Shown piece after piece: positions 3,941 through 56,830 of a DNA stretch of 64,000 nucleotides (within the stretch, counting starts at the first letter, position 1; each line of letters opens with the position of its first letter). Source of the stretch: an uncultured Acidobacteriota bacterium (GTDB lineage Bacteria > Acidobacteriota > Polarisedimenticolia > J045). The stretch is from positions 32,001-96,000 of the forward strand of contig CAVPCQ010000017.1 in NCBI GenBank assembly GCA_963702425.1, in the 5' to 3' direction. The notes under the pieces are model-generated. The model made no database searches, was not told where the DNA came from, and worked only from the letters and a program-made list of their open reading frames with translations. The position numbers and the translations under genes were made by a program.

Positions 3941-4061
3941 GGCTCGAAGAAACGGCCAGGGGGTGGCCGTTCGCGGCTGCCCCTGTCCCTCGCCGGCCGC
4001 TACCTCTCCTGGGCCGAGTTACTGCGTCGAGTGTTCGCTCTGGACGCCCTCCGCTGCCCGC

Positions 4062-4568
4062 AGTGCATCACAGACTACGTACCGCGATCTTGAACTTCCC
4101 GATCGTGTCGTTGTCACCCATCGGCCGCATCCGCTGCGAGGGCAGTCGCTGCAAGTGACCCGCCTGCGCCGGTTGGGCAGCGGGGCCTGTTGGTGCGTTC
4201 GTCTGCCCGACGGCTCCACCGGTGTCGTGCCGTGCCGCTGGACCGACCATCCGCTCACGGACGTCCCGCCGGCGTCGTCGGAGGCGCACGGCCGCGCGAC
4301 CCCGCGGGCGCTGCGCGATCTCACGCGACTGCTCGAACGGCTTGTCCTCCCGGACCCGGACCTCGATGCTCCCGCTGGCGATTCGGCAGAAGGAGGTCGG
4401 CATGGGCGAGCAAGGCCGTCTGTTCGAGCGGCACCCGCTCCCGTGGGTGGTGCGACTGTGGAGCACGATCGAGCCCGACGCGCGACGGGAGGTGGTCACG
4501 CTGCTGGCGGAGATGGCTCGCCGGTCGCTGCTCGCACGCGGGTCGGACGGCCCGGAGGAGTCGGATGA
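4062..4568 (+). CDS. DUF5372/Y4bD-like small protein without an evident start in the integrated state
   Basis: VTHRPHPLRG...LPDGS...VPCRWTD resembles ITHPFHPL...EDGS...VPRGWTS of type B. Confidence 0.6.
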   Translation, partial: SASQTTYRDLELPDRVVVTHRPHPLRGQSLQVTRLRRLGSGACWCVRLPDGSTGVVPCRWTDHPLTDVPPASSEAHGRATPRALRDLTRLLERLVLPDPDLDAPAGDSAEGGRHGRARPSVRAAPAPVGGATVEHDRARRATGGGHAAGGDGSPVAARTRVGRPGGVG

Positions 4569-4578
4569 TGAATCTTGA
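4402..4578 (+). CDS. Small protein upstream of LSR
   Basis: AGGAGG RBS, MGEQGRLF...; overlaps the LSR start; repeated at 29912-30088. Confidence 0.6.
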   Translation: MGEQGRLFERHPLPWVVRLWSTIEPDARREVVTLLAEMARRSLLARGSDGPEESDDES

Positions 4579-5974
4579 CGAGATCACCCCGGCCCAGCGC
4601 GCGCGGTGGGCCTGCGTCTACGTGCGGCAGTCGTCGCTCCACCAGGTCCGCCAGCACCCGGAGAGCCAGCGTCGCCAGCGCGAGCTCGTCGAGCGCGCCG
4701 TCGCGCTGGGCTGGCCGCCCGAGCGGATCACCGTCTTCGACCAGGCCTGGGCGAGACCGCGGCCCGCAGCGGCGAGCGCGCCGGCTTCGACGAGATGGTC
4801 GCCCAGACGGCGTTGGGACAGGTCGGCCTGATTCTCGGCCTCGACGTCTCGCGCATTTCGCGGAGCAACCGGAATTGGTACCATCTGCTCGACATCTGCG
4901 CGATCCGTCAGACGCTGATCGGCGATGCCGAAGGGATCTACGACCCGCGGGCCTACAACGATCGGCTGTTGCTGGGCCTGAAAGGGACGATGAGTGAAGC
5001 CGAGCTGCACATGATGAAGCAGCGCCTGGTCGAAGCGATGCGCAGCAAGGCGCAGCGGGGCGCGTTCCGCTTCCGGCCGGGTCCGGGTTACGTCTGGGAC
5101 GACGCCGGCCGCTTGGTGAAGGACCCGGACGCGCAGGTGCGGGCGACGATCGAGCGGATCTTCGCCTGCTTCGAGCAGCTCGGTACCGTGCGGGCCGCCC
5201 ACCGCGCGCTGCTCGCCGACGGGATCGAGGTGCCCGTCCTGAGCGGTCCCGGCCACCGCACGCGCTTCCAGCCGCCGGACGAAGGCTACCTGTATCGCCT
5301 GCTGCGGAATCCGCTCTACGCCGGGGCCTACGTCTACGGCCGGAGCCAGGTCGTCGAAGCGCTCGATGCGGCGCAGCGACCGATCAAGCGCCTGCGCCGC
5401 CGGGCCCCGGAGCAGTGGCCGGTGCTGATCCAGGATCATCACGAGAGCTACCTCGCGTGGGAGCAGTTCGAGCGCAACCAGCGCCAGATCGCGTCCAACC
5501 GCAAGGGACCGGGACCCGGCCCGCCGCGCGAAGGCCGGTCGCTGCTGCAGGGGCTCTTGCTCTGCGGTCGTTGCGGCCGGCGGATGCAGGTGAGCTATGG
5601 CCGTCGCGGCCGGCACGTGCGGTACACCTGCGGGGGTCGGCGCCGGCAGTTGCAGGGCGGTTCGGCAAGCTGCCCGGACGTCGGGGCGCTGCGGATCGAA
5701 CAGGCGGTCGAGAAGCTGGTCCTGAGCGCGCTGGAACCGCTGGGCGTGGAGGCGCTGCTCGAGGCCTCGGCGCGGCACGCCGAGGCGAGTGTCCAGGAGC
5801 GGGTGCGCTGGGAGCAGCAGATCGAGCGCGCGCGCTACGAAGTCGACCTGGCGCGTCGGCAGTACGAGGCCGTCGTAACCGTTCCGGCAACCGCAGGTTC
5901 CGCCCGGCAAGAATTCGAGCGAGCATGCGCATGCCATGAAACGGGACGTTGGCTGGCGGTTGGATCGGGGACGA

Positions 5975-7588
5975 TCAGTCGGTGGATTCAGGCCGACTCT
6001 GGCGCGCCGCGGCCCAATGCGGCGGGAGGAGTTCCTCGATCTGGCGCTGGGGCCAGCCTTCGGCGAGCTTCTCGAGGACGTCGCGCAGGTACGCCGCGGG
6101 ATCGACGCCATGCAGCCGGCAGGTGCCGAGGACGGTGTAGATCACGGCGGCGCGCTCGGCACCGACGTCGGAGCCGGCGAAAAGCCAGTTGACGCGGCCG
6201 ATGGCGATGCTGCGCAGTTCTCGCTCCACCGGGTTGTTGTCCAGTTCGAGCCGCCCGTCTTGCAGGAACCGACAGAGCGCATCCCACTGGTTGGCGGTGT
6301 ACGTGAGCGCCTGGCCCAGTGGACTCTTCGGCGGCGCCTCGCCGCGCATCCGGTCGACCCAGACCTTGAACTTGGCGAGGATGTCGCGCGAGTACTCGTC
6401 GCGCAGCGCCCTGCGCTGCTCGGGCGTGCAGCTGCGGCCGTCGGCCAACCACTCCACTTCGTACAGCCGGCGGACGAAGGCGATGCCCACGGCGGCGCGC
6501 AGATCGACCGCCAGCGCTTTGTGGTAGTACCGCCGCGCGTGGGCGAAGCAGCCGACCTCGACGAGCCGGGCCGCGGGGCCGCGGAACAGCCGGTCGAAGC
6601 CGGCGTAGGCGTCGGCCTGGAGCCAGCCCTTCCGCCCGGCCAGGACGGCCTGCGGTCCCGCGCCCGACCAGTCCGGGGTGTAGTCGTAGGTCACCCAGCG
6701 CCGGTCGCCGAGATAGGCCCACATGTGGCCCCGCTTCGATCCACCCGCCTTGTCGGCGTCGAGCACCCGCAACGGCGTGTCGTCCACCTTCAGGTCGTGA
6801 GCGGCGAGGGTGTGCCCCCGGATCAGGCGGGCCAACGGCTCGAGCTCGGTCGCGACCGCAGCGACCCAGCCGGCGAGGGTCGAGACCGCCAGATCGACGC
6901 CGTGGCGGGCGTAGATGCGGCGCATCCGGTGCAACGGCGCGTGGTCGAAGTACTTCCGGACGATCACGTCGGCCAGCAGGCCGGGGCCGGGGATCCCACC
7001 GTCGATCGGCTTGGGCGCGGGTGGGGCAATGCTGATCTCGCCCTCGCATTCCGCGCAAGCATCCTTGGCCCGCCGGATCTCGATCACCTTGAAGTGACCC
7101 GGCACCCACTCCAGCATCTCGCTTGTTTCAAAGCCGATGCGCTGTTGCTTTTCCTTCCCACAGACGGGACAGATGCGATCCGCTGCTGCGGGCTCCAGCA
7201 CGACGACCTCGCGCGGCAGATGCCTGGGCAGCGGCTTGCGGATCGCGCGCCGCTTGGGCGGCGCGGCGGGCGCGGGCTCGGGCATGCTGACGGGTTCCGC
7301 CAACTCGTCCGGCGTCGCCTGGGCGGAGGCGAGCACTTGCTCGAGGAACAAACCGAGTTGCGCACTCGGGATCTTCTCCGAGCGGCGGCCGAACTTGTCG
7401 GCCAACAGGCGGGCCAAGCGCACGCCGAGCCGATCGTTCTCCTGCTTGAGCGTGGACAGCAGCGTGACCACGAGTTCGACCGCGTCGGCGTGCCGACCTG
7501 CGGCGAGCAAGGACTCGATCTCGCCGCGGAACGCGTCGATGCTGGCTTGGGTCGCGGGCAGCGTCGCCATGACGCAGGAATCAGACAC
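5975..7588 (-). CDS. tnpC: IS66 transposase TnpC
   Basis: KFGRRSEK, CPVCG, DDTP, LQADAY, CFAHARR and DNNPVER motifs. Confidence 0.92.
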   Translation of the reverse strand: MSDSCVMATLPATQASIDAFRGEIESLLAAGRHADAVELVVTLLSTLKQENDRLGVRLARLLADKFGRRSEKIPSAQLGLFLEQVLASAQATPDELAEPVSMPEPAPAAPPKRRAIRKPLPRHLPREVVVLEPAAADRICPVCGKEKQQRIGFETSEMLEWVPGHFKVIEIRRAKDACAECEGEISIAPPAPKPIDGGIPGPGLLADVIVRKYFDHAPLHRMRRIYARHGVDLAVSTLAGWVAAVATELEPLARLIRGHTLAAHDLKVDDTPLRVLDADKAGGSKRGHMWAYLGDRRWVTYDYTPDWSGAGPQAVLAGRKGWLQADAYAGFDRLFRGPAARLVEVGCFAHARRYYHKALAVDLRAAVGIAFVRRLYEVEWLADGRSCTPEQRRALRDEYSRDILAKFKVWVDRMRGEAPPKSPLGQALTYTANQWDALCRFLQDGRLELDNNPVERELRSIAIGRVNWLFAGSDVGAERAAVIYTVLGTCRLHGVDPAAYLRDVLEKLAEGWPQRQIEELLPPHWAAARQSRPESTD

Positions 7589-7618
7589 CCATCCACGCGC
7601 CGTGTCAAGAGACTAAAT

Positions 7619-8002
7619 CTAATATTGCAGTCCTGCTCGCGCACCACCCGCGCGCGGCTCCCAGCGCGGGCGGCGCCGAGCGCCCGCCAGCTCGATCCCC
7701 TCCAGCATCAGCAGCAGTTCACCCGCTTCGACCTCGAGCACCACCGCCCCCGGCGGCACCTGTCGCGGCAGGTGGAACACGCCGCGCTCGAGCCGCTTGT
7801 AGACGATCACGAACCCGCCGCGGTCCCACCAGAGGCACTTGCAGGCGTCCCCGCGACGATTCCGGAACACGAAGAGATGCCCCGAGAGCGGGTCGTCGCG
7901 CAGGGTCTCACGCACCGCCGCCGACAGGCCGTCGAACGAACGCCGAATGTCCACCGGATCGACGGCCAGGTGGATCCGCACCGCCGGCGGCAGCGTCAGC
8001 AC
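7619..8002 (-). CDS. tnpB: IS66 accessory protein TnpB
   Basis: PVDIRRSFDGL, LFVFRNRR, LWWDRGG, KRLERG. Confidence 0.9.
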   Translation of the reverse strand: MLTLPPAVRIHLAVDPVDIRRSFDGLSAAVRETLRDDPLSGHLFVFRNRRGDACKCLWWDRGGFVIVYKRLERGVFHLPRQVPPGAVVLEVEAGELLLMLEGIELAGARRRPRWEPRAGGARAGLQY

Positions 8003-8373
8003 GGGCCCTGCAGCTCGCGCACGAGCGCCGCCAGCTCGGCGACTCCGAAGCGCCCGGCCAAGCGCGCGACGCCAGCGGCCGTCACCACCTCGAGCGCGCT
8101 CCCCGCACCGTTCGGCGGCGTGGCGATCAGCTCCACCAAGCGCACGGGCATCGCGCGGGAACCCTCCGCGAGCCGCCTCCGCCAGCGGTACAGCCGCTCC
8201 GCGGAGTAGCCTTCGCGACCTGCGAAGGCCCACACCGACAGCCTCGAGCCGCGCTGCCGCTCCAGAACCGCCCGCGCCTGCTCCGGCGTCCAGCGCTTCG
8301 AATCCTTGCTGCTTGCCGCACGCGAACGTGACCGGCCTCGCGACATCGCCATGCCTCCCGATGCGGGAGTCAA
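7996..8373 (-). CDS. tnpA: IS66 TnpA-like HTH protein
   Basis: SRLSVWAFAGREG...LYRWRRRL; first ORF of the element. Confidence 0.75.
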   Translation of the reverse strand: MTPASGGMAMSRGRSRSRAASSKDSKRWTPEQARAVLERQRGSRLSVWAFAGREGYSAERLYRWRRRLAEGSRAMPVRLVELIATPPNGAGSALEVVTAAGVARLAGRFGVAELAALVRELQGPC

Positions 8374-9745
8374 GCATCGCGCGCGGCGCGGGGGGCGCGG
8401 AAGATGCGGTTGCCGGAACGCTTACAGGCCGTCGATCCGGCCCACCGCCTGGTCGCCGGGGAGCTGGAGCGGCGCTGGGAAGTCGCCCTGAAGGCGCTGG
8501 AGGACGTGCGGCGCCGGGCGGAGGCCCAGCTCCGCACGCTCGAGCCGGCGCTCGGCGAGGACGACCAGCGACGGCTGCGGCAGACCCTCGCAGCGCTGCC
8601 GCGCCTGTGGCAGGCGGCGACGACGCGGGTCCAGGACAAGAAGCGGGTCCTGCGCTGCCTGATCGAGAATGTCGTCGTCGCGATTCCGGACGACGGCCCG
8701 GAGGTGCGGGTCGAGGTGCACTGGGTGGGCGGCGAGATGACACCGCTGGCCGTGCGGCGCGGCCGCCCGGGCGAGACACGTTTCATCGCCGACGAGGCGC
8801 TGGTGGCGCTGGTGCGGGACCTTGCCGTGGAGTTCACCGATGACCAGATCGCGCGGATCCTCGGGCGCAAGGGGCTCAAGACCCCGACCGGGCTGCCCTT
8901 CACGCGGCTGCGCGTGACCTCGATGCGTGGCAACCACGACCTCCCCGGGCTCGGACGCCAGCCGTTGGACGGCGCGGATGTGTACGACGCCGATCAGGCC
9001 GCCGAGAAGCTCGGCGTCGCGACCAGCACGGTGATCCGCTGGGTGGAGCTGGGCCTGCTGAAGGGCAGGCAACGCACGCCCGGTGCCCCGTGGCGCATCC
9101 GCGTGACGGCGGACGACCAGCGCCGGCTCACCGAGGTCGACGCGCCCGCGGGCTGGCTCCCGCTCAAGGCTGCCGCCCTCGCCCTGGGTGTCAGCCAGCA
9201 GACGGTCTTGCACCAACTCAAGGGCGGGCAACTCGAAGGCGTCCGGGTCCGGGTCCGAGCCCGATCGGCCTGGCGAATCCACGTCCCGTCAACGCGTTAC
9301 CCATCACGGACGACGCTCTTCGACTGAGCGGTATTCGAGGTGACTGAGTATGTGCGACACACCCCGCGCTGCTCGTCCCGCATGAAGATCCTGGCCCAGA
9401 TCCACCCGCCCGACACGACCCGCGCGATTCTCGACTGCCTCGGGCTGGCCTCTCGCGCCCCGCCCCGCGCGCCGGCCCGCGCCGAGCCCGACCCGCTCCC
9501 CTTTCCCGGGAACGCCGCCGCGGACTGAGCTCATCGACGAACGCCCGGGCCCTCGCGGGTCGTGCCAACCCGGAGGGCGGGACTCCGCCTCCGCGGCCGA
9601 CCTCCGCGCGTCCCTTTCGGCCCGCTCGCCGCGACGCGCCGCGTCCGACCAGGGCCGGCCCCCGCGGCTGGCCGCTCCCCCTTCCCCGGCAGGCCTGCGG
9701 CTACGCTCTCCGCCTCAGAATCCGCGGCTTGAATCGCCTATCCTC

Positions 9746-12400: not shown

Positions 12401-14333
12401 ATCGGGATAGGGAGGAAGCCTCACGGCTCCCCCCCTCCCACACCACCGCACGTACGGATCACGTATGCGGCGGTTCGGCGGATTCAGTAGTCGGGTCATC
12501 CCTCCACCAGACTCGGGAGCCCGAGCGCCGCGAAGTACCGCGCAGGCAGTGCGATCGCGAGTGCCGGGCTCTGACTCAAGCGCCACGGCCCGTGAGCTGA
12601 CTTGGCGGTATTCCAAGCCAGATCCCGAGAAATGCCCCGTTTCCTCAGTTCCCGGTAGCCCCGCCGACCCCATTGCTTCCAGTGGTAGCAGCGCAGCCGG
12701 CGCCGGATCCACTTGTCCAGATCGAGAAGGGGTGAGGTCACCTCGGCGAAGCCGTAGTACCCTCGCCAGCCTAGGAGGTTGGTCCTGAGCTCCTTCATGA
12801 TCTGACGCATCGTGCGTCCGCGCGTTCGACTCGTCAGCTCTCGCACCTTGGCCTTGAACGCCAGCAGAGACTTCGCGCTCACCTTCCGCCGGGGTGACCG
12901 GCCACGGGTAAACGTGAAGCCGAGAAACTTCCGGTTGGAGGGCCGGTCCACGGCGCTCTTGGCCTCGTTGACCGCGAGCTTGAGTCGGCGCTCCAGAAAA
13001 CGGGTGACACTGGCCTTCACGCGCTCGCCCGCACGACGACTCCGGACGTAGATGTTACCGTCGTCGGCGTAGCGGACGAAGCGGTGGCCGCGCCTCTCCA
13101 GTTCCTTGTCGAGGTCGTCCAGCAGCAGGTTCGCGAGCAGCGGCGAAAGTGGGCTGCCTTGCGGCGTCCCCTCCGCCGTCGGTTCCACCACCTTCTCCAG
13201 CGTGAACACTCCGGCCCTCAGGAACCGGTGGATCAACCGCACCACTCGGCGGTCTCGCACACGCGCCCGCACACGGCACAAGAGGACGTCGTGGTGGACC
13301 CGATCGAAGAACCGCTCCAGATCAAGGTCCACGACCCACGCGTACCCTTCCCGGATGTAGGTCTGCGCCTGCTCCACCGCCTGGTGCGCGCTGCGCCCCG
13401 GACGAAAGCCGTAGCTCGATTCCGAAAACGTGGGGTCCCAGTCCGCTTGCAGTACCTGCAGCAAGGCTTGCTCGACGAACCGGTCGAGAACCACCGGCAC
13501 TCCGAGATTTCGAGTACCTCCCCCAGCCTTCGCGATCTCGACTCGCCGTACAGGCTGGGGGTTGTAGGTACCCTCCAGCAGGGAGGTCCGGATGGCCGGC
13601 CAGTGTGCCTTGAGGTGGGGCGCTAAGCCATCCACGGTCATCCCGTCGATGCCCGGCGCTCCACGGTTGCGTCGGACCTGGCGGAGCGCACGCAGGAGAT
13701 TCTCCCTCTCCAGCACCCGCTCCATCAGGGCTGTCCCTCCCACCGGAGCGTCTTCTCCTCGTGTCCCAATCGCGGTTTCATCCCCCGGATTCGCCAGGGG
13801 CAGCAAGAGCTGCCTGCCGGATGCAGTACCGTCATTCGACACGATGGTGACTTCTCCCTTCCTTCAATCCCCTCGCGGGGCACCGTTCGGGCCTTCATCC
13901 CGCGGCGTTGCGGCTCGGCCTATCCGTTGCCCCGCCTTTCGGCTTTGGGGTGCCTCACTAGCCTCGCCTGCCTCGGGCCTACTACGCCCTCTGCTGACTT
14001 CTCCCGGCCGGTCGGCGTCGGTTGCCCGAAACCCAGTCCTTGCGGACGACCGGGAGATCTCCCAGGGTAAGACACAGATCGTTCCGCGCGTGGACGCCGG
14101 ATTTATAAAGCACACCCCGTTGCGGATGGAGGACTTCGCGGTCACGTGCCCGCTCGTCCCGGGTGCGCCACACCTCATATCCGGTTCCTGTTCGTCGCCC
14201 CGCGCGTTTTGGATTGGGCTTCCTCCAGACCCCAACTCGCGTTGACGCCCTTGCCCTTCTCCTTGCCTTCGGCTCCGCGATAACCTGGCACGGGGACTTC
14301 CACCCCGCTCGATCTGTGCCATGCCTGGCACAC
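12401..14333 (-). mobile_element. Complete group IIC intron inserted in an attC core site
   Basis: 5' GTGTGCCAGGCATGG; domain V GAACCGCCGCATACG...GCGGTGGTGT; 3' end CCCGAT. Confidence 0.92.
12496..13842 (-). CDS. ltrA: Group II intron reverse transcriptase/maturase (no endonuclease domain)
   Basis: GAPGIDG, SYGFRPGRS, GTPQGSPLSP, RYADD, FLGF; 448 aa. Confidence 0.95.
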   Translation of the reverse strand: MSNDGTASGRQLLLPLANPGDETAIGTRGEDAPVGGTALMERVLERENLLRALRQVRRNRGAPGIDGMTVDGLAPHLKAHWPAIRTSLLEGTYNPQPVRRVEIAKAGGGTRNLGVPVVLDRFVEQALLQVLQADWDPTFSESSYGFRPGRSAHQAVEQAQTYIREGYAWVVDLDLERFFDRVHHDVLLCRVRARVRDRRVVRLIHRFLRAGVFTLEKVVEPTAEGTPQGSPLSPLLANLLLDDLDKELERRGHRFVRYADDGNIYVRSRRAGERVKASVTRFLERRLKLAVNEAKSAVDRPSNRKFLGFTFTRGRSPRRKVSAKSLLAFKAKVRELTSRTRGRTMRQIMKELRTNLLGWRGYYGFAEVTSPLLDLDKWIRRRLRCYHWKQWGRRGYRELRKRGISRDLAWNTAKSAHGPWRLSQSPALAIALPARYFAALGLPSLVEG

Positions 14334-14388
14334 ACGCCCAAGGTCAGCGGCGCGGCTTGTCCGCGTCCGCTGCAGCGCCTGGTTCGGC
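14334..14388 (-). other. Integron attC site (R' box completed at 12396-12400 after intron removal)
   Basis: GCCGAAC...GCAGCGGACGCGG...CCGCGCCGCTGA...GT|TGGGC imperfect palindrome. Confidence 0.8.
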
Positions 14389-15369: not shown

Positions 15370-15380
15370 CTCATCTCCTT

Positions 15381-15650: not shown

Positions 15651-16277
15651 ACCCCAATGCCGGTTAGTTTGGCCGAAGCCGGCGTCATGTCAGGGTTTCC
15701 GGCGGTAGCTGGACATCTTGACCTTGACCGCCCGCGGATAGCGTCGGGCGCCTCGTCGGGGTGGCAAGACGAGCAGCGCGGATTGGGCGTCGAGCTGCTC
15801 GAGACGCCGCGGGACGACGCCGGGGCTGGCGGCCCAGACGGTGAGCACCGCCCCTCGCCAGCGAGCGGCTCTCCCGGCTCGAGGACGGCCGCCTGCTCTA
15901 CCGGCTCAAGCGCCGCTGGCGCGACGGCACGACGGCGCTCGTCTTCGAGCCGCTCGAATTGATCGAGCGGCTCGCCGCGCTGGTCCCGCCGCCGCGCCGA
16001 CACCTCGTCCGCTATCACGGGGTCCTCGCCCCCGCCTCCGCGGCGCGCCCGTGGATCGTGCCCCAGCCGCCCACCGAGGACGGGATCCCCGCCGACGACC
16101 TCACTCCTAAGGCGTCACCCCCGGCCCCGGGTCCGGGCCCCACGCCGCCGGCTGACCGGCCTCCCGGCGCTCGGTCTCCCGACCCCGGCGGCCGCTACCT
16201 CTCCTGGGCCGAGTTACTGCGCCGAGTGTTGGACCGACCATCCAACTGCACCCGGCACCGCCGCTGCGGCGCGCCGG

Positions 16278-17203: not shown

Positions 17204-17259
17204 ACCCGCGCCCGCCGGGGTCCGGTCTCGCCGCGCACTACGAGCGACTGCGGGAGGGT

Positions 17260-46426: not shown

Positions 46427-47027
46427 GGCTCGTTCCCTCCCCGGGGCTGACAGCTTACGGCGGATACCGCGCTCCGCGCAGGATGGTGTGTGACGCCGGT
46501 CGCACGCGAGCTTACGGACTCGTTAGCATGCGGGTCGACGCGGCGGTGCTGGAAGGCCCCCGATCGGCAGCGGCTCGAGCGGCTTTGCCGTTACGTCGCC
46601 CGACCGCCCCTCGCCAGCGAGCGGCTCTCCCGGCTCGAGGACGGCCGCCTGCTCTACCGGCTCAAGCGCCGCTGGCGCGACGGCACGACGGCGCTCGTCT
46701 TCGAGCCGCTCGAATTGATCGAGCGGCTCGCCGCGCTGGTGCCGCCGCCGCGCCGGCACCTCGTCCGCTACCACGGGGTCCTCGCCCCCGCCTCCGCGCT
46801 GCGCCCGTGGATCGTGCCCCATCCGCCCACCGAGGACGGGATCCCCGCCGACGACGTCACATCCAAGCCGGCACCTCCGGCACCTGGCCTCACGTCGCCG
46901 GGTGCGCGGCCTCCCGGCGCACGGTCTCCCGACCCCCGCGGCCGCTACCTCTCCTGGGCCGAGTTACTGCGCCGAGTGTTGGACCGACCACCCGACTGCA
47001 CCCGGTACCCGCGATGCGGTGCGTCGG

Positions 47028-47312
47028 ATGCGGATCACGCATCCGTTCCACCCGCTGCGGGGGCGGGAGTTCGTCGTGCTGGACGAGCGCCGCAACCGCC
47101 ACGGCGAGCGGGTCTGGTACCGCGCTGAGGACGGCTCGGCGCGGACGGTCCCGCGGGGCTGGACGAGCCTGGGGGAGGCCGATCTCTTCGCGACGATTTC
47201 GGCCGGGCGGGCCTGGTTTCGGTGGGACGACCTGCGGCGGCTGGTGGCGTTGATCGGGGAGCTGCGGGAGGGGCTGGGCCCGGGGGACGCGGGGGGAGGG
47301 GGTGTCAAGTGA
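47028..47312 (+). CDS. DUF5372/Y4bD-like protein
   Basis: Same as 37197-37481. Confidence 0.7.
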   Translation: MRITHPFHPLRGREFVVLDERRNRHGERVWYRAEDGSARTVPRGWTSLGEADLFATISAGRAWFRWDDLRRLVALIGELREGLGPGDAGGGGVK

Positions 47313-47488
47313 ATTTCGTCCATATTGTCTGGAGTATTATGCTCGTAGCGGTCGGGGGCGCCGCAGCCGATCGGGCCTTGATCAGCCGAATGCCGCGCAT
47401 CAGAGCGATAATGGCACAAGGCCCATGGACACGGTCTTTGATGTGTGCATAATGGTCCTGACACACGGCGACGACCCAGGAGGAGACC

Positions 47489-47953
47489 ATGGCCGCACCG
47501 AGCGACGACTCCAAGCGCCGCGAGCTGGCCCGCCGCGGGGCGCTGCACCCCCACGCCGCGCAGGTCACGGACCCGCTCTTCGCGCGCGAGCCGTTCTTCG
47601 ACCGCCGCGACGCGGTGCAGGTCAAGTACGAGATGCTGCGCAGCGTGCGGGCCGAGGGCCGTCCGGTGAGCCAGGCGGCGGCGCAGTTCGGCTTCTCGCG
47701 CCCGACCTTCTACGAGGCGCGAGCGGCCTTCGAGCGCGCCGGTCTGCCGGGTTTGCTGCCGGCGAAGAAAGGGCCGAAGCGCGCGCACAAGCTCTCGGCG
47801 GAGGTCCTGGCCTTCATCGACCGGCAGCTCGACGCCCGGCCGGCGCCGACCATGGAGGCACTCAGCGCGCGGATCCACGAGCACTTCGGCCGGTCGGTCC
47901 ATCCCCGCAGCATCCGGCGCGCCCTGCTGCGCCGCACAAAAAAAAACCCGTAG
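47489..47953 (+). CDS. HTH protein
   Basis: Same protein as 37659-38123. Confidence 0.85.
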   Translation: MAAPSDDSKRRELARRGALHPHAAQVTDPLFAREPFFDRRDAVQVKYEMLRSVRAEGRPVSQAAAQFGFSRPTFYEARAAFERAGLPGLLPAKKGPKRAHKLSAEVLAFIDRQLDARPAPTMEALSARIHEHFGRSVHPRSIRRALLRRTKKNP

Positions 47954-50370
47954 ACCCGCGCCCACCGACGTCCGGTCTCGCCGCGCACTACGAGCGGCTG
48001 CGGGAGGGTGTGCTCGGCGGCGACCGCCGGCCGTCGATCGGCGAGACGATCGTCCGTGGCCAGGGACTGTGGGCCTTCATCGCGCTCGCCGCGGCCGAGG
48101 CGCCGAGCGGCACGCCACCGCGCGTGGTCACGGGATCGAGCGGCGCTCTGCCGGCACCGGCGGTGGCCGAGCGGGGCGCGCTGCTCGCGGCGTGGGCCGA
48201 GCTCGTCGTCGCCGTCGTGCAGCGCCCGGAGGTCTCATGACCGAGGCCACGCCACAGAAGGTCGCCGCGACCCACCTGGCGCGCCAGGCCTTCCTCTACG
48301 TCCGCCAGTCGACGCTGCGCCAGGTGGTCGAGAATCCGGAGAGCACGCGCCGGCAGTACGCGCTGCGCGAGCGGGCCAGCGCGCTGGGCTGGCGGGCCGA
48401 GCAGATCGTCGTGATCGACTGCGATCTCGGTCGTTCGGGCGCGACGGCCGAGCGCGAGGGCTTCCAGCGGCTGGTCGCCGAGGTCGGGATGGGGCGGGCC
48501 GGGATCGTGCTCGGTCTCGAGGTTTCCCGCCTGGCCCGCAACTCCACCGACTGGCACCGCCTGCTCGAGATCTGCGCGCTGACCGAGACGCTGATCCTCG
48601 ACGAGGACGGCCTGTACGATCCGACGCAGTACAACGACCGTTTGCTGCTCGGCTTGAAGGGCACGCTCTCGGAGGCCGAGCTGCACCTGCTGCGCGCGCG
48701 GATGCGCGGGGGTCTGCTGGCCAAGGCCCGCCGCGGCGAGCTGGGCCTCGGTCTGCCGGTCGGCCTGGTCTATGACGAGCTGGGGCGCGTCGTGCTGCAT
48801 CCCGACGCGCAGGTGCGCGAGACCCTGGCGCTGTTCTTCCGCACCTTTCAGCGCACCGGGGCGGCTTGTGCGACGGTCAAGTATTTCTCGACGGAGCAGA
48901 TCCCTTTCCCCGCGCCGACCCGCCCGGGGAGTCGCTCGGCGCAGGTCGTGTGGGGTCGGCTCAACCTCACGCGGGCCGTCAGCCTGCTGCACAACCCGCG
49001 CTACGCCGGGGCCTTCGCCTACGGCCGGCGCCGCGCGCGGCGGCAGCCCGACGGCCGCTTCCAGACCACGCGGGTACCGCGCGACCAATGGCTCGTGCTG
49101 CGCCTCGAGGCGCACCCGGGCTACATCGCGTGGGACGAGTTCGAGCGCAACCAGGAGCGGCTCGCGGCCTCGGCCCGGGCCTACGGGCTCGACCGCCGCG
49201 ACGGTCCGCCGCGCGAAGGCCCGGCGCTGCTCCAGGGGCGCGTGCTCTGCGGCCGCTGCGGCGCGCGGATGACGGTCCGCTACCATCAGCGACGCGGCCA
49301 ACTCGTGCCGGACTACGTCTGCTGTCTCCGGACGCTGCAACACCGCGACCCGCCGTGCCAGGTCCTGCCCGGCGGCGCGGTCGACCGCGCGATCGGGCGT
49401 CTGATCGTCACGACGCTGACGCCCTTCGCCCTCGAGCTGACGCTCGCCGTCCAGGCCGAGCTCGAAACCCGCCTCGACGAGGCCGACCGGCTGCGCGGCC
49501 AGCAGATCGAGCGCGCCCTGCACGAGGCCGAGCTGGCCCGCCGCCGCTACCTGCAGGTCGATCCGACGCATCGTCTCGTCGCCGCCTCGCTCGAGGCCGA
49601 CTGGAATGACCGCCTGCGCGCGGTCGCCGAGACGCGCGAGCGCGTCGAGCACCAGCGCGACGCCGACCGCGGCGCTTTCGACGAGCAGACCCGGCAGCGG
49701 ATCCGCGACCTCGCCGCCGACGTCCCGGCCGTCTGGGACGATCCCGCCACACCGCCGCGCGAGCGCAAGCGGATCCTCGGTCTGCTGCTCGCGGACGTCA
49801 CGCTGGCCCGGCAGGACGACGAGATCACGCTCGCGGTCCGCTTCCGCGGCGGCGCCACGACGACGCTTCGCGTCCCGCTCCGGATCGGTCCCTGGCGCGG
49901 GCGCAAGACCCATCCCCAGGTCGTCGCACGGGCCGCGACGCTGCTCGCCTCCCACACCGCCGGCGAGGTCGCCGCGCGACTCAACGCGGAGGGCTTCACC
50001 TCCGGGGCCGGCCTCCCTTTCAAGCCGGACACCGTCGAATGGATGGGCCGGCACTACGTGGCAGTTCCGGCGATCGTGATCACCCGATCCGGGATCGTGA
50101 TCACTGATTCCGCTGATGGTGATCACGCGTCGGAGCGAAGCGACGGTCGGTTCGTTCTAGTTTCGCCTCCTGTCAAGCCTCGGCAGATTCTAACGCGGGA
50201 TCCCGATCGGTTGAAGGCTGGGTGGCAGCAGGGCCTGTGGGGCCTGTGGGCGGCGCGGCCGTTCGCGCCGTCCAAGGGGCGGTGGGAAACGCGACGTCAT
50301 GCGTTTTCCACGGACCCGCCAGGATCCATAGGCCGTCGCGCGTCAGCGCGAGTTCGGAGCGCAGCGACGA

Positions 50371-51126
50371 TCATCGGGTCTTGTCTCCGCCACGGATCGG
50401 ACTGCGGAGCTCGCGTTGCGAGGGCCCTTTGAGATCGATCTTGTGCGCGCGGTGGACCAGGCGATCCAGGATGGCGTCTGCGAGCATCGCTTCGCCGATC
50501 ACCTCGTGCCAGGCTTTGATCGGGAGCTGACCGGCCAGGAGTGTCGAGCCACGCTCGGCGCGGTCCTCGATCACCTCGAGCAGGTCGCGGCGCCCGGCGT
50601 CCTGGAGCGGCGAGAGCAGCCAGTCGTCGATCACCAGCAGATCGAGCTTGGCCAGTCGGGCCAGCAGGCGGCCGGACGAGCCGTCGCCGCGGGCGACGGC
50701 CAGGGCCTGGATCAGGCGCGGGGCGCGGACGTACTGGGCGGTGAAGCCCTTGCGGCAGGCGCGTTCGCCGAAGGCGCAGGCCAGGTAGGACTTTCCCGAT
50801 CCGGTCGGGCCGGTGATGATCAGGTTGTGCCGCTCGGTGATCCAGGTGCAGGTGCCGAGCGCGAGCAGCACCTGGCGATCCAGGCCGCGCCCGGGCTTGA
50901 CCTCGACGTCCTCGAGTGCGGCGTCGTAGCGCAGCCGCGCCAGCTTGAGCCGCCGCGTCAGCTTGCGCTGCTCGCGCTGGGTCCACTCGTGGTCGACCAG
51001 CAGACCGAAGCGCTCTTCGAAGCTGAGCGCGACGTGTGTGGTGTCGTGTTGCTGCCGGTCGAAGGCCTCGGCCATGCCGTGCAGGTTCATCGCCTGGAGC
51101 TTGTCGATCGTGGGTTGGGTCAGCAT
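50371..51126 (-). CDS. istB: IS21 helper ATPase
   Basis: GPTGSGKS, IDDW, AILDRLVH. Confidence 0.93.
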   Translation of the reverse strand: MLTQPTIDKLQAMNLHGMAEAFDRQQHDTTHVALSFEERFGLLVDHEWTQREQRKLTRRLKLARLRYDAALEDVEVKPGRGLDRQVLLALGTCTWITERHNLIITGPTGSGKSYLACAFGERACRKGFTAQYVRAPRLIQALAVARGDGSSGRLLARLAKLDLLVIDDWLLSPLQDAGRRDLLEVIEDRAERGSTLLAGQLPIKAWHEVIGEAMLADAILDRLVHRAHKIDLKGPSQRELRSPIRGGDKTR

Positions 51127-52685
51127 TCGGTCTCCTGGGACACGTAGTAGTCCGCGCCACGGATGTTGGGATGGCCTTGCGGGGGGGGCGACAGAGCCAA
51201 CGGCTCGTCCGCGATCGGGACACGGTCGAGACCGGCTTGCAGGATGTTGTGCACGGTCTTGAAGCTCACGGCGGCGAGGCGTTCGGCCCGCGCACAGGCC
51301 GCCTCGAGACGGCCGTCGCCGTGCTTCTTGCCGAGACGCATCAGACCCAGACAGGCCCGATAGCCCTGCTCGGGGTGGGGCCTCGAGCGCAGGATCTGCT
51401 CGACCACGCGCCCCGTGGCCGGGCCGCTCTTCTCGGCCCAGTGGATCAGCCGCGAGGGCGTCCACTCGGCGTGGGCACGATGCGACGCGGGCATGTGCTC
51501 GGGGTAGGTCGAGCTCTGGCCGCGGCCCCGCAACCGCCGGTGCGACGTGATCCGGCGGCCGTTGTGGAAGACTTCGACGACGTCGGCGGTGAGGCGGGCG
51601 TCGACCTGCTCGTACAGCAGCGTGTACGGCACGCTGTAGGTGTTGTATTCGATCGCGATGTGGTAGTCGATGCTGACCCGGCAGGTCTTCCACTGGCCCA
51701 GCTCGTAGCGCCGCGGTGGCAGCGGCTTGAGTGCGGGCCGGTCGAGCTGCTCGAACAGCTCGCGGCGGCTGACACCCAGGGCGCGGATCCGCCGCTCGTT
51801 GAGGTGTCCGGTCAACTCCCGAATCGCCGCGTTCAGCTCGTGCAGGCTGAAGAAGATGCGATGCCGCAGCACCGCCAGGATCCAGCGCTCCGCCAGCAGC
51901 ACCCCCGCTTCGACCTTGGCCTTGTCCTTCGGCCGATAGCTCCGTGCTGGGATCACCGCGGTCCCGTAATGCGCCGCCATCTCGCCGTAGCTGCGGTTGA
52001 CCTCCGGCTCGTAACGACACGGCTTCGTCACCCCGCTCTTCAAGTTGTCGGGGACCAGCATCTCCGGGGCTCCGCCCCAGGCCTCAAACATGTGGACGTG
52101 TGCCCGGATCCACGGCTCCAGCTCCTGCGATTCCACCGCCTCGGCGTAGGTCTCACTGCTCGCCCCCAGCACCCCGACGAACAACTCCACTTCGCGCACG
52201 GCGCCCGTCGCGGGGTCAACGAGCCGCGGCTTGCTCCCGGCGAAGTCGACGAAGGCCTTCTCACCCGCCCGATGGACCTGCCGCATGCTCGGCTTGAGCC
52301 GCGCAGCGAAGCGTCGATACAACTCGCAGAACTGGCTGTAGCGATAGTGATTCACCGGGTGCGCCGCGGCGTACTCGCCCCACAGCAGCTGCAGCGTCAC
52401 GTGCTTGCGCCGCAGCTCCTGATGCACCCAGCTCCAGTCGGGGGGCAGCCGCTCGACCTCCACGCCCGGGGCCGGCGGGAACAGCCGCACCGTCAACGCC
52501 GCGTCGTCCAACTCCTCCGGCAGCGGCCAGGACAGACCGGCCGCCTGGGCGCGCTGGACGTAGGCGCAGACCGTACCCGTGCCGATCCCTGCCGACCGCG
52601 CGATCTCACGGTGCGTCAGCCGGCACTCCCATTTCAGTCGCAGGATCTCGCGCAACTTCCTCATCAGCAGCCTCTCGCCAGCCAT
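51120..52685 (-). CDS. istA: IS21 transposase
   Basis: FVDFAG, VPDNLKSGV, PKDKAKVE. Confidence 0.95.
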   Translation of the reverse strand: MAGERLLMRKLREILRLKWECRLTHREIARSAGIGTGTVCAYVQRAQAAGLSWPLPEELDDAALTVRLFPPAPGVEVERLPPDWSWVHQELRRKHVTLQLLWGEYAAAHPVNHYRYSQFCELYRRFAARLKPSMRQVHRAGEKAFVDFAGSKPRLVDPATGAVREVELFVGVLGASSETYAEAVESQELEPWIRAHVHMFEAWGGAPEMLVPDNLKSGVTKPCRYEPEVNRSYGEMAAHYGTAVIPARSYRPKDKAKVEAGVLLAERWILAVLRHRIFFSLHELNAAIRELTGHLNERRIRALGVSRRELFEQLDRPALKPLPPRRYELGQWKTCRVSIDYHIAIEYNTYSVPYTLLYEQVDARLTADVVEVFHNGRRITSHRRLRGRGQSSTYPEHMPASHRAHAEWTPSRLIHWAEKSGPATGRVVEQILRSRPHPEQGYRACLGLMRLGKKHGDGRLEAACARAERLAAVSFKTVHNILQAGLDRVPIADEPLALSPPPQGHPNIRGADYYVSQETEC

Positions 52686-52740
52686 CGGCCCCTCCGCAAA
52701 AGGGCCAGATTGACCGCGTTCGCTGCCGACGCCTACCAGT

Positions 52741-52885
52741 GATCACGATGCCCGGAATCCCTGATCACGATCCCGGAATCCCTGATCAGGATCCCGGAAT
52801 CCGCGATCACGATCCCCGGAACCGGTGATCACGATCCCGGAATCCCTGATCACGATGCCCCGGAATGAGCGATCACGATGGTCCG
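52741..52885. repeat. IS21 subterminal tandem repeats (GATCACGATCCCGGAATCCCT-like)
   Basis: About six imperfect 21-22 bp copies; inverted copies at 50070-50125. Confidence 0.85.
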
Positions 52886-53587
52886 GAACCGCCAACTACG
52901 GGCTGACCAGCCGACGCGACCACCTGCGTGCCGCCGGCCACCTCACCGCCGTCGAGCTCGCCGCACGGCTCCGCGTCAGCGTCGCCCGAGTCGGCTGCTG
53001 GCGTGCCGAGGGCCGGCTCACGGGGACGCGCTGCAACCAGAAAGACTGGCTCTACGACCCGATCGAGCGGCAGTCAGCGTGGATCCGGGAGCGTGCAGCG
53101 TGCGAAGATCGACGCCTCGACAGGCCGCGCGAGAACCGCACGATCACAGCGGCGACACGGGGTGCAGTATGAATGACGCTCCTTCGCTCTGGATGCCCTC
53201 CGCTGTCCGCGCTGCTCGTCCCGCATGAAGATCCTGGCCCAGATCCACCCGCCCGACACGACCCGCGCGATTCTCGACTGCCTCGGGCTGGCCTCTCGCG
53301 CCCCGCCCCGCGCGCCGGCCCGCGCCGAGCCCGACCCGCTCCCCTTTCCCGGGAACGCCGCCGCGGACTGAGCTCATCGACGAACGCCCGGGCCCTCGCG
53401 GGTCGTGCCAACCCGGAGGGCGGGACTCCGCCTCCGCGGCCGACCTCCGCGCATCCCTTTCGGCCACTTCGCCGCGACGCGCAGCGCCCGACCACGGCCG
53501 GCCCCCGCGACCCCTTCCCCGGCAGGCCCGCGGCTACGCTCTCCGCCTCAGAATCCGGCTTGAATCGCTTATCCTCTGAAGACGACC

Positions 53588-54376: not shown

Positions 54377-55559
54377 CTAAAGCCTCCGGCGGCAGGAGTA
54401 TGGTGACGGATGCGCCGCCGCGTCGATTCGTCTGCAATACCACGTTTCCACCCAATCTCTCGACGATCCTATAGACGCTCTGTAACCCAAAGCCACGTCC
54501 CTTGCCTTTGGTCGAGAAGCCGCGACCTCCTCTCATTGATGTGTTGAGCCGATCCAGATGTGATCCCCATCCCGGTCCGTTGTCACTCACCCTGGCCACA
54601 AACAAATTCCCCGGTGGCTCGCTACGAAGAACTACGGAGACCCGTGGGCGTGCGGGATTTGTCGCCCTGGCAGTCAAGGTCTCCGCAGCGTTCGCCAGCA
54701 GTGGTCGTAGCAACACGGTAATCACTGCACGGGGGAATACGTGAGACGGGTGCACGCGCTCTGTGTCGACAATCAACCTGGTGCCGCGCGGCGCAGGATG
54801 CGGTAGCGTCCGAAACAGGTCGCGAACGTGCTTCTGCAGAGAAGGAGCGACGATGGTGTCCGGAGGTCTTGGCGGGCGGTAGAATTGACGTACAAGGTCG
54901 TGAAGATCAGACAGCACGCGACATGCACGCGTTAGGGAGGACGTGAGCACTTCGAGGTCTCGTTTGTGCTCTTGTTTCACCGCTTCTAGTTCTAGGAGGT
55001 CAGCGCAACCTAGGGAGGCGCCAAGACAGTTTGCCAAATCGTGGCAATAGCCGCCAACGATCTCTGCTATGGCTGTGGCTAGAGGATGTGACGATTTTTG
55101 GCGCGGATGTTGCTGAAAGTAGTGACCGTACTTCTGAAGAAGGATCGCTCGTCTGTCGACACCTGGCTCTGCACGAAGCGCTTCGTCGATGCTATGGGTA
55201 AGAGCAGGAACATCTTGCGGCTTCGTGAGCATCTCAAAGATACCCAGCTCGATTCCGAAGTCCAGCCGAAAGCCCGGGTACCCCGTCAGTAGGATCACGC
55301 GCGTGCCGCTTCCGGCGATGTGTCCGGCGGCAGCGACTCCCCCTATCCCGGGCATTACGACGTCGACGAGCGCGACATCCGGCTTGAAGGCGGAGGCGAC
55401 AGCTATCGCCTCCTCGCCAGAAGCTGCCACCCTAACATCATACCCCTCGTGCCGTAGGGCCCTGGCTAGGCCTTCTCGAACGTCAGAGTCATCGTCTACA
55501 AGGAGAACCCTTCCCGTAGACCGGGTCGTATGTTTGACTTGTCGGCGATTCTGATTCAT
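54339..55559 (-). CDS. Hybrid receiver-histidine kinase (start uncertain)
   Basis: VLLVDDD, DVVMPG, CHDLAN, LLANA, VSDNGPG, GRGFGL. Confidence 0.85.
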   Translation of the reverse strand: MNQNRRQVKHTTRSTGRVLLVDDDSDVREGLARALRHEGYDVRVAASGEEAIAVASAFKPDVALVDVVMPGIGGVAAAGHIAGSGTRVILLTGYPGFRLDFGIELGIFEMLTKPQDVPALTHSIDEALRAEPGVDRRAILLQKYGHYFQQHPRQKSSHPLATAIAEIVGGYCHDLANCLGASLGCADLLELEAVKQEHKRDLEVLTSSLTRACRVLSDLHDLVRQFYRPPRPPDTIVAPSLQKHVRDLFRTLPHPAPRGTRLIVDTERVHPSHVFPRAVITVLLRPLLANAAETLTARATNPARPRVSVVLRSEPPGNLFVARVSDNGPGWGSHLDRLNTSMRGGRGFSTKGKGRGFGLQSVYRIVERLGGNVVLQTNRRGGASVTILLPPEALDETDGVEGTSPG

Positions 55560-56157
55560 CTGCTGCGCCTTCGGTCGCGAAGACGATCTCTTAGCGATTC
55601 GCGCCTCTCGGAAGTCAACGTTGACCGAGGGCATTCCTAGCGCCAAGCACAGTTGGCACGCGGTCCTCGCGCACGCTGTGCTCTACTCTACATCATGGAG
55701 AGGCATCCGAGCGTTGTCGCGTCGCCAAGCGCGGGCGAGCCAACATGGGCGGGCGTTTCGTTCCCCGCGTGATCGCCGCCGCCCTGATCGCACTCGGCCT
55801 GGCAGCGATCGGGCACGGCCGGACGAGCGGGACAATAGGCCCGGCCCGCGCCCGCATGGTTGCCTCGTCTTGAGGCATTCGGCAGAGGCGTGCCGCAAGC
55901 GAGCTCACTCGCGCAGCATGAACGGCTGGCCACAGGCTGCAGGCAGGGCCGCGAGGGCGGATAGCCGGTATTGGCCGCGTTTCCCCACCGGCTCAGGCTG
56001 GCACTGGCCGGGGGGGCTGACAGGCGGCCGCGGGCGCGGCAGCAGGAGGAAGCGGCCCGACGGAACCTCACGGGAGCGGCCCAAGCCGGCCGAGCTCGGG
56101 CTTCAGCGGCCGGAGCCGCCGCAGCAGGGCACAGCCCTCGCGGCGCGAGGCCTCGCC

Positions 56158-56347
56158 TCAGTCGCTGGACCAGTCGGGGTCGGGCTCGAACAGCGCCGCC
56201 GTAGTCCGCCGCGGCGGAGCCACGGGCGGCGGCCGGGCCGACAGCCCGAGGCACTCCAGGATCGCTCCGGCCGTGTCGGGCGGATGAATCGCGGCAAGGA
56301 TTCTCATCGGTCCGTGGCACCGCGGGCACTCCAGGACATCCACGGCG
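56158..56347 (-). pseudogene. 3' tail of a divergent IS91-like transposase
   Basis: FAVDVLECPRCHGPMRILAAIHPPDTAGAILECLGL. Confidence 0.8.
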
Positions 56348-56830
56348 AAGGAGCGTCATTCATACTGCACCCCGTGTCGCCGCTGTGATCGTGCGGTTCT
56401 CGCGCGGCCTGTCGAGGCGTCGATCTTCGCACGCTGCACGCTCCCGGATCCACGCTGACTGCCGCTCGATCGGGTCGTAGAGCCAGTCTTTCTGGTTGCA
56501 GCGCGTCCCCGTGAGCCGGCCCTCGGCACGCCAGCAGCCGACTCGGGCGACGCTGACGCGGAGCCGTGCGGCGAGCTCGACGGCGGTGAGGTGGCCGGCG
56601 GCACGCAGGTGGTCGCGTCGGCTGGTCAGCCCGTAGTGCCGGCCCATCCATTCGACGGTGTCCGGCTTGAAAGGGAGGCCGGCCCCGGAGGTGAAGCCCT
56701 CCGCGTTGAGTCGCGCGGCGACCTCGCCGGCGGTGTGGGAGGCGAGCAGCGTCGCGGCCCGTGCGACGACCTGGGGATGAGTCTTCCGCCCGCGCCAGGG
56801 ACCGATCCGGAGCGGCACGCGAAGCGTCGT
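56348..56830 (-). mobile_element. Right end of LSR element B, copy 4 (inverted, truncated)
   Basis: LSR C-terminus ...ITAATRGAV and attR with TT core. Confidence 0.9.

Follow-up and report, generated by a model that had tools for sequence, protein, structure and literature searches.

Putative site-specific integration of IS-sized large serine recombinase elements into IS91/ISCR-like transposase genes and other genes of mobile elements

Two types of large serine recombinase (LSR) elements, A and B, have been found in two and four copies, respectively, in a 64,000-nt stretch of DNA from an uncultured Acidobacteriota bacterium (hereafter the window; positions 32001–96000 of contig C17 in assembly G000), and all six copies reside in remnants of IS91/ISCR-like transposase genes. 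The window has 68.7% G+C, and the assembly comprises 5.1 Mb in 42 contigs and is 91% complete. We consider it highly probable that A and B are autonomous elements of insertion sequence (IS) size with site-specific attB attachment sites in IS91/ISCR genes, that their superfamily hunts motifs of mobile-element genes, and that their DUF5372 gene is completed at the junction of the element ends. We also favor, with clearly less assurance, a broader interpretation, in which A and B represent two terminal branches of a very large and essentially undescribed superfamily of IS-sized hyperparasites of the mobilome, controlling themselves via a DUF5372 gene that is split by integration and rebuilt in the circle.

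Copies were defined by self-BLAST of the window, junction print-outs, and pattern searches. Type A is represented by A1 (4062–9367, plus strand), with an IS66-family element interrupting its LSR gene at approximately 5876–8422, and by A2 (29572–32319, plus strand, 2748 bp, attR core at 32315–32319). Type B is represented by B1 (16231–19592, plus strand, 3362 bp, attR TT at 19591–19592), the intact B2 (37150–40512, plus strand), B3 (46981–53184, plus strand), whose LSR gene is broken by an IS21-like element at approximately 50063–52894, and B4 (56350–56840, minus strand). The six LSR copies of the original prediction are therefore present as two A and four B, the sixth of them, B4, being merely a fragment with about 490 bp of the type B right end, cut off at 56840.

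The core of type B is TT, with the junctions GAGT[G/C]-TT-GGACC and GCTCC-TT-CGCTC. In type A, CCCGC is common to both ends, and the exact crossover dinucleotide would lie inside it. TT and CCCGC are separated by 21 bp, and both fall within the codons for RRVF-ALDALRCP-RC. The B site is intact in the A copies (4028–4040, 29538–29550) and the A site is intact in the B copies (at 19608, 40528, and 53200; 19608–19623 at B1), so that each type serves as an empty reference for the other. Removal of an element, with the other type as the reference, restores the reading frame and rebuilds RRVFALDALRCPRC, as had been claimed. Moreover, a natural, fully empty allele is present outside the window, at positions 2284–2761 of contig C17, and empty sites were also observed in a genome of the same genus (G004, about 96% identity), the sequence of the empty alleles being undisturbed. 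Comparison with empty alleles indicates that the target would be precisely restored and shows no target duplication at the A and B junctions.

These data agree with the original prediction that all copies sit in the same short IS91-like stretch, at two fixed different sites; junctions, empty alleles, and relatives at the same codons (see below) all point the same way. The prediction had proposed to look for empty and filled alleles, and the empty ones have been found in C17 and in G004; it had also named copies at unrelated sites genome-wide as evidence that would speak against it, and across this genome (G000) no A or B copies at other, unrelated sites were found. The attP sites had been described as imperfect inverted repeats. 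This is clear for B, whose ends form the imperfect inverted repeat GGTGCAGT-N14-TT-N14-ACTGCACC with approximately 27 of 39 positions alike, present in B1 to B3, and weaker for A, where the inverted repeat contains a 5-nt indel. Between B4 and B1, the right half-site shows differences at about 8 of 23 positions. As a separate observation, the IS91 3' copy on contig C18 (11237–11640, L207) loses its similarity to the family over the first 18 bp or so upstream of the TT core, with none left further out; either aberrant recombination, of which this would be a scar, or truncation near the site may explain it.

Both LSRs contain the Pfam domains Resolvase (PF00239; E 1.8e-14 for LSR A and 8.7e-21 for LSR B), Recombinase (PF07508), and Zn_ribbon_recom (PF13408). 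R23-Q24-S25 and the YVRQS box are invariant in an alignment of 23 sequences, Ser25 being the nucleophile. The two recombinases, with sizes of 697 and 734 aa, are 38% identical to each other, and only LSR A has HTH_17 at the C-terminus. Matches to DUF4368 at E ≤ 0.01 were found in neither LSR A nor LSR B, and no TnpB-like open reading frame (ORF) was found within A or B. Contrary to what had been suggested, the elements are not minimal. B carries three genes on one strand: a DUF5372 ORF at the very left end (E 9e-23), a gene for a helix-turn-helix (HTH) protein resembling the N-terminal domain of IS630/IS481 transposases, and the LSR gene; in B1 they occupy 16278–16562, approximately 16820–17203 (HTH_23/28/32), and 17487–19580 on the plus strand, and LSR B of B2 is encoded at 38407–40500. 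Besides its LSR, A carries a DUF5372-like ORF without its own start codon and a small ORF with high third-position G+C; in A2 these start at 29572 and occupy 29732–30088, respectively, and are followed by LSR A with its C-terminal HTH_17 (30075–32279, all on the plus strand). A follows the DUF5372–HTH–LSR plan only partly: a separate HTH gene is missing, the LSR itself ends in HTH_17, and the DUF5372 match falls just short of the cut-off.

LSR B has thousands of relatives (at least 8000 scored matches), many of them on contigs of about 3.3–3.5 kb, roughly the element size. Scanning of one genome per species yielded at least 592 confirmed stretches, and the best 80 loci, originating from many phyla, were analyzed as the B family. 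The gene order is kept, with DUF5372 in 73 and the HTH gene in 79 of the 80 loci upstream of the LSR gene. The right end, GAGGTGCAGTATGA-N10-TT, is conserved among B relatives; a right end with TT was identified in 62 of the 80 loci. Left ends were called by motif search, and both ends with plausible geometry were retained for 43 of these 62 loci, the others being dropped for implausible element length (e.g., L009, L010, L025, L054, L067). Flank frames were defined as ORFs abutting the junction or as motif-anchored ORFs; the choice of the longest ORF gave spurious frames in high-GC DNA.

Four loci from metagenome-assembled genomes (MAGs) of Myxococcales, Elusimicrobia, and delta-proteobacteria (L004, L005, L012, L013) lie in IS91-family genes at the same codon as B, in the sense orientation, the junction being ...LL[RK][RK][AT]F-element-[AD/E]..D..CP.C; in L005 the rebuilt IS91-family ORF is 515 aa long. 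One more locus, from a Planctomycetota MAG (L037), has IS91-like flanks. In a tree built with FastTree only, B, L007, and L037 fall into one group with the IS91-targeting LSRs (support 80). Most other B-family loci are inserted antisense in rve-type transposase genes, with the junction in D-[N/K]-x-x-E, the motif of the third catalytic residue. The Pfam tally covered 44 of 49 loci, leaving out the four sense IS91 loci and L052, a duplicate of L050, and rve was matched by 28 of the 44 antisense flank ORFs. NCBIfam assigned these 44, in overlapping tallies, to IS21 (18), IS3 (12), ISNCY_2 (4), and IS481 (22), and clustering of the flank ORFs yielded groups of 18 and 16. A B-like element of a genome of the same family (G006) resides in an IS3-type gene. 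Two further observations concern individual loci. L063 and L067, from one genome, have identical LSRs and right flanks with almost no common DNA, and both flanks cluster with IS21-family transposases. L071 is a B-family element in an IS91-family gene at another place (KKPWSD/GTSS, the slash marking the junction), antisense and with a non-TT core, while the same gene has an uninterrupted RRTF...C..C site.

The B family comprises a previously noticed element of Sinorhizobium fredii NGR234. Its copy on pNGR234a encodes DUF5372, an HTH protein, a small "transposase" ORF, and a recombinase of the 694-aa class about 52% identical to LSR B; we take these genes to be y4bA–y4bD (y4pH–K), and the name NGRIS-4 presumably applies to this element. 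The pNGR234a copy is 3320 bp long and has TT cores and ends of the type GGTGCA...-N-TT / TT-N14-ACTGCA. The two NGR234 plasmids contain eight full copies and one diverged copy. Both ends, with TT cores and 3302–3321 bp apart, were found for seven of these nine, and all seven lie in a K-[G/A]-K-x-E motif of transposase genes, IS21-like in five cases and ISNCY-like in two; the motif was identified by script for four copies, while L213, L219, and L220 were translated by hand from the flanks. Perret and colleagues reportedly noted in 1997 that all nine copies of NGRIS-4 had transposed into other ISs. The element resembles B in gene order and TT cores, and differs in that B targets IS91 in the sense orientation, whereas the NGR234 copies are antisense in rve-type genes. 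By these features, B is a new member of a very large family of approximately 3.35-kb DUF5372–HTH–LSR elements that includes the pNGR234a element.

Relatives of LSR A are also counted in thousands (about 731–740 aa, with HTH_17), and many are encoded on contigs of about 2.75 kb. A is a new member of this second large family, in which elements of about 2.75 kb encode an LSR fused to HTH_17. Close relatives were found neither in 119 genomes of the same class (best identity 42%) nor in PLSDB plasmids (best about 42%), and came from protein collection and metagenome contigs only. Of seven metagenome loci with 52–59% identity to LSR A, the four whose flanks are informative (L120, L121, L122, L125) are all inserted at C-P/x-C-G of IS91-family genes, the site of A. 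The presence of relatives at the very same codons indicates that target specificity is inherited in both LSR lineages. A and B thus seem to represent two LSR lineages at 38% identity, each specialized on the IS91 tail.

The remaining loci of the A scan, about 40% identical to LSR A, form a second set with other junction targets: Walker A of IstB (antisense), RWxIE of DDE_Tnp_1 (antisense), TnpB of IS66 (sense), LGH...Y of tyrosine recombinases (sense), and the YNDRLLLG motif of LSR genes. A mobile-element motif is found at the junction in 46 of 72 flanks, compared to 10 of 360 shuffled flanks and none of 24 far flanks. Pfam confirmed nine of ten tested flanks, each match ending at the junction (profile positions 99/238 in IstB_IS21, 163–164/200 in DDE_Tnp_1, 155/172 in Phage_integrase, 61/101 in TnpB_IS66, and 114/145 in Resolvase). 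IS91 would then be one of many mobile-element genes targeted by the LSR superfamily. DUF5372, searched for with a profile built from the B family, is present in only 31 of the 80 second-set loci, and hence we do not claim it for all LSR lineages. As a separate observation, L144 and, judged by eye, L149, L164, L192, and L197 are LSR elements of about 2.7 kb from metagenomes, inserted antisense in YNDRLLLG of another LSR gene; in L144 the Pfam Resolvase match stops at the junction. Judging by this position, elements of the L144 type are putative parasites of their sister elements.

The first gene of the elements is split by the attachment site. The conserved right end contains GAGG-N6-ATG, a Shine–Dalgarno (SD) sequence with a start codon. 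When the circle junction is rebuilt, 41 of 43 B-family loci have the right-end codon and the DUF5372 domain in one reading frame, and in 39 of the 43 this codon is ATG, GTG, or TTG; frame, openness, and start codon are combined in 37 loci. Among the failures, L011 and L036 had doubtful end calls, and so did the right end of L050/L052. The distance from the right-end codon to the domain is 63, 66, or 69 nt, always a multiple of three, and the peptide M-K-x-x-P-W-x-x-x-S-T-A-P, encoded by the attP arms themselves, is conserved. Inside the element an ATG before the DUF5372 domain is found in none of 41 loci, and 25 of the 41 also lack GTG or TTG; most domains begin with F or V. The type A junction ORF is in frame and open in all four tested cases (A1, A2, L120, L121), the right-end ATG of A2 being at 32302–32304 on the plus strand. 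In B1, the right-end SD and ATG (19577–19579) overlap the stop codon of the LSR gene (ATGA). DUF5372 proteins predicted by gene callers vary from 79 to 197 aa, and the first residue of the domain ranges between 1 and 118; this spread fits a gene that has no proper start when integrated. We infer from these reading frames that the excised circle gives rise to the complete DUF5372 protein.

A modeled complex of DUF5372 and LSR B has an interaction prediction score from aligned errors (ipSAE) of 0.75, compared to 0.00 for the best control. A score this high was obtained for 58 of 80 solved complexes and for 2 of 110 mismatched pairs, a calibration that is rough, as our own alignments were used. 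Three runs agree in at least 82% of contacts, with the predicted local distance difference test (pLDDT) value of the partner being at least 74. The modeled interface on the LSR comprises residues 337–342 (zinc-ribbon cysteines), 393–412, and 481–541, flanking the coiled coil. The model supports the prediction that DUF5372 binds the zinc-ribbon and coiled-coil base of the LSR, the region where the recombination directionality factors (RDFs) of phage integrases are reported to bind. DUF5372 itself is modeled with pLDDT 83.8 as a small beta-barrel with a helix. A fold search against the PDB gave no match at E ≤ 0.001, only weak SH3/KOW-like rows, and hence the complex model is unlikely to have passed through recall of a known structure. 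If produced from the circle, as the reading frames suggest, DUF5372 may act at integration, a role for which such production argues.

In the mechanism that we propose, A and B would excise as a circle, and the circle would re-integrate by conservative attP x attB recombination, B at TT and A inside CCCGC. Each lineage would have specialized on one short conserved motif within the genes of some other mobile element; those observed are the catalytic-E motif of rve, Walker A of IstB, RWxIE of DDE_Tnp_1, TnpB of IS66, catalytic boxes of tyrosine recombinases, the IS91 tail, and LSR genes. Such targets would be multi-copy and horizontally mobile, and their disruption should cost the host cell little. 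The SD and ATG at the right end would join the DUF5372 ORF only in the excised circle.

The hosts of the window copies are parts of IS91/ISCR-like genes. On the 5' side, on the plus strand, they occupy 3987–4061 at A1 (only about 70 bp, with attL core CCCGC at 4057–4061), 15847–16230 at B1 (Y2_Tnp profile positions 117–178; TT at 16229–16230), 28806–29571 at A2 (the longest remnant; attL core at 29567–29571), 37032–37149 at B2 (117 bp; TT at 37148–37149), and 46555–46980 at B3 (TT at 46979–46980). The respective 3' flanks, also on the plus strand, are 9368–9745 (A1, extending to the conserved IS end ...GAATCGCCTATCCTC), 19593–19985 (B1, the C-terminal 62 codons and a non-coding end of about 200 bp), 32320–32697 (A2), 40513–40916 (B2), and 53185–53577 (B3). 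B4 is hosted by a divergent IS91-like 3' part on the minus strand (56224–56349, about 71% nucleotide identity, reading FAVDVLECPRC..., with attR TT at 56348–56349). A 223-bp isolated fragment of an IS91 3' end (56831–57053), 98.7–99.6% identical to those at B1 and B3, adjoins the cut end of B4.

The A2 host matches Pfam Y2_Tnp (PF04986, E 8.9e-21) only at profile positions 93–177, and all three Y2_Tnp matches in G000 are partial, each starting at profile position 92 or later. The best NCBIfam match of the A2 host is ISCR clade Ia, covering positions 228–464 of 509 with 158 bits against a cut-off of 925. Intact IS91/Y2_Tnp genes were found neither in the assembly of G000, which at 91% completeness in 42 contigs may lack an unassembled intact copy, nor in five relatives, where only partial matches are present. 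The 3' boundary (...GAATCGCTTATCCTC) is identical in every host copy, the DNA past the boundary is unique for each copy, and the 5' side is cut at differing points, leaving 70, 96, 117, 384, 426, and about 770 bp. The host IS91 genes here are dead, 5'-truncated remnants.

The identity of the elements is decoupled from the identity of their flanks. B2 and B3 are 99.6% identical, while 19 differences are spread over 115 positions of their 5' flanks, the closest of them directly beside TT; from TT inward there are no differences in 151 positions, so that the switch in identity at the left junction coincides with the core. Between A1 and A2 the identity is about 99%, and between their 3' flanks 90.7%; the A1 3' flank groups with those of B1 and B3 (97–99%), and the B2 3' flank is 97.4% identical to the empty allele on C17. 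The 5' flank of B3 is 99.3% identical to that of A2, while its 3' flank is 99.2% identical to that of B1. B4 occupies the same TT in an IS91-like gene just about 71% identical. This decoupling favors independent integration. Repeated site-specific integration would fit the pattern, and a single insertion copied together with its host would be hard to reconcile with it.

The latter possibility deserves attention, since prematurely terminated rolling-circle copies of IS91/ISCR are expected to have a fixed 3' end and variable 5' truncation, and the hosts show exactly a precise common 3' end with 5' truncations leaving from 70 to about 770 bp. A single ancestral insertion could have been amplified, either through rolling-circle transposition that started at the 3' (oriIS) end and stopped early or through segmental duplication, the six copies then not being independent; the 99.2% identity of the B1 and B3 3' flanks is also in line with this. 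We nevertheless regard this scenario as unlikely. Nearly identical elements have incongruent flanks (about 10% divergence at B2/B3, 90.7% identity at A1/A2), one IS91 lineage bears A in one copy and B in others, with a closely related copy left empty, the assembly yielded only partial Y2_Tnp genes, and the same site is occupied by relatives in other phyla. For the same reasons the suggestion that the elements hitchhike on rolling-circle transposition finds no support here: the assembly has no intact IS91 gene, and the flank patterns misfit co-duplication.

Recombination between copies has shaped these loci as well. B2 and B3 share 150 identical bp of flank at the attR side, and the flanks of B3 are mosaic, A2-like at 5' and B1-like at 3'. 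B1 is itself a mosaic element, with the left 600 bp (16231–16830, the DUF5372 region) approximately 9–11% diverged from B2 (37150–37750) and B3 (46981–47580) and the remaining 2.7 kb 99–100% identical. All three features would be explained if homologous recombination or gene conversion, acting via the IS flanks, had carried the elements from one IS91 copy to another, with no need for the LSR. Such passive homing is quite improbable in view of the identity switch exactly at the TT core of attL, with a mismatch at the adjoining position –1, of B4, whose IS91 copy at about 71% identity has too little homology for conversion, and of family members in unrelated transposase families with the same kind of core.

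The original prediction regarded the elements as reversible off-switches of the IS91 transposase that exclude each other through overlapping attB sites, and this we consider very doubtful. Precise excision is mechanistically possible, and by conservative serine recombination it would restore the frame. All hosts found are, however, 5'-truncated and cannot be switched; as dead remnants, they leave no place for an off-switch role in this genome. It is true, as was claimed, that none of the six occupied sites holds both types, but with six sites only, zero doubles are expected by chance and carry no statistical weight. Moreover, after either insertion the half-site of the other type still has 22 bp and its core untouched, and with LSR attB sites of about 34–40 bp in total this may suffice for recognition. 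Finally, untargeted insertion, with survival only of those insertions that hit dispensable mobile-element genes, would agree with the presumably low cost of transposase disruption to the cell and with the loci lacking a recognizable mobile-element gene in the flanks, but is hardly credible given the junction at the same nucleotide in independent copies and distant lineages, the defined core in a motif of three to five codons, and the far-flank controls (0 of 24).

Several observations weigh against site-specific integration into mobile-element motifs with a junction-completed gene, as proposed here. The shared attR-side flank of B2 and B3 and the mosaic flanks of B3 belong here, as does the confinement of every copy to one 64-kb stretch. 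Among the B-family flank ORFs, 16 of 44 have no rve match, approximately 7 of the 49 loci are unclassified, one flank ORF is a citrate synthase, and the left ends, called by motif, are wrong for some loci. The motifs of the second set were defined after inspection of the data, and 26 of its 72 flanks have no motif. The DUF5372 match of A scores 24.0 bits with a cut-off of 25. If DUF5372 were a classical excision factor, its production from the circle would work against its purpose.

The LSR elements are themselves invaded. The IS66 insertion of A1 encodes a transposase at 5975–7588 (minus strand), and the IS21-like element of B3 encodes IstA (51120–52685) and IstB (50371–51123), both on the minus strand, which gives three nesting levels inside the IS91 remnants. 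An ORF for the reverse transcriptase/maturase of a group II intron (RVT_1 and GIIM) is located at 12496–13842 on the minus strand, and a 1556-aa RHS-repeat protein of the polymorphic-toxin type (RHS_repeat, DUF6531, RHS) is encoded in the same island at 21769–26439, also on the minus strand. A pair of 341-aa ORFs of equal length, without Pfam matches, is found at 14344–15369 and 56360–57385, again on the minus strand.

The closest known systems include Tn4451/Tn4453 (TnpX) and Tn5397 (TndX), where the LSR excises the element as a circle and reinserts it, as A and B presumably do. Lyras and Rood are said to have shown in 2000 that the circle junction of Tn4451/Tn4453 creates a promoter for tnpX. 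This is the closest precedent known to us for the A and B junction, which completes the first gene and would be analogous, with, as far as shown, an SD and a start codon restored instead of a promoter. Tn4451, Tn4453, and Tn5397 carry resistance cargo and use many sites with a short core, whereas A and B have no cargo, one site each, and no DUF4368 match. TndX-like LSRs are placed in a multi-targeting clade, most members of which have DUF4368, by Durrant et al. (PMC10083194).

Serine integrases of phages and integrative and conjugative elements (phiC31, Bxb1, phiRv1) share with A and B the domain set, an attP that is an imperfect inverted repeat, a shared central dinucleotide, and the absence of target duplication, and phiRv1 integrates into the repeated element REP13E12. 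A and B differ in being only 2.7–3.4 kb as a whole, without phage or conjugation genes, and in targeting mobile-element genes. DUF5372 is modeled at the region of the recombinase where phage integrase RDFs are reported to bind, and has no fold match at the above threshold. Other hunters of mobile DNA are known, namely Tn5053/Tn402 at res sites, IS1111 in integron attC sites, and group II introns in mobile elements. Like A and B, they use conserved sequences of other mobile elements as safe mobile landing sites; A and B differ in the use of a serine recombinase and in their sites, which are coding motifs of transposase, ATPase, and recombinase genes and not recombination sites. The IS607 family is similar in IS size and in having a serine recombinase, and differs from A and B, which have a large recombinase with Recombinase and zinc-ribbon domains, no TnpB, and a highly specific target.

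In the literature we found no description of LSR elements targeting transposase genes, although the supplementary target tables of Durrant et al. (2022) may bear on this; the LSR targets named in that paper (PMC10083194) include Mg-chelatase, prolyl isomerase, and competence genes. Nor did we find in the literature on the NGR234 element a description of the LSR mechanism, motif-level targeting, phylum-wide spread, or the junction-spanning gene. The combination of targeting coding motifs of mobile elements with a junction-completed gene appears to be a new form of a known type of system.

If this interpretation is true, the observation reportedly made in NGR234 in 1997 would be explained mechanistically and generalized across phyla. 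The elements would also constitute a large natural collection of serine integrases with attP and attB deducible from genome sequence alone; as attB would be short conserved motifs present in many bacteria, they may find use in genome engineering and in the inactivation of IS elements in production strains. The evolution of LSR specificity becomes a tractable question, as the outer attP motif is conserved while attB changes between protein families, and the identical LSRs of L063 and L067 beside dissimilar right-flank DNA bear on it. A gene split by the attachment site would be a simple topological switch, analogous to the junction promoters of IS circles and Tn4451. Finally, LSR elements that inactivate transposases and ride on whatever carries those genes would form an overlooked and sizeable layer of mobile-element ecology, whose niche is the genes of other elements.

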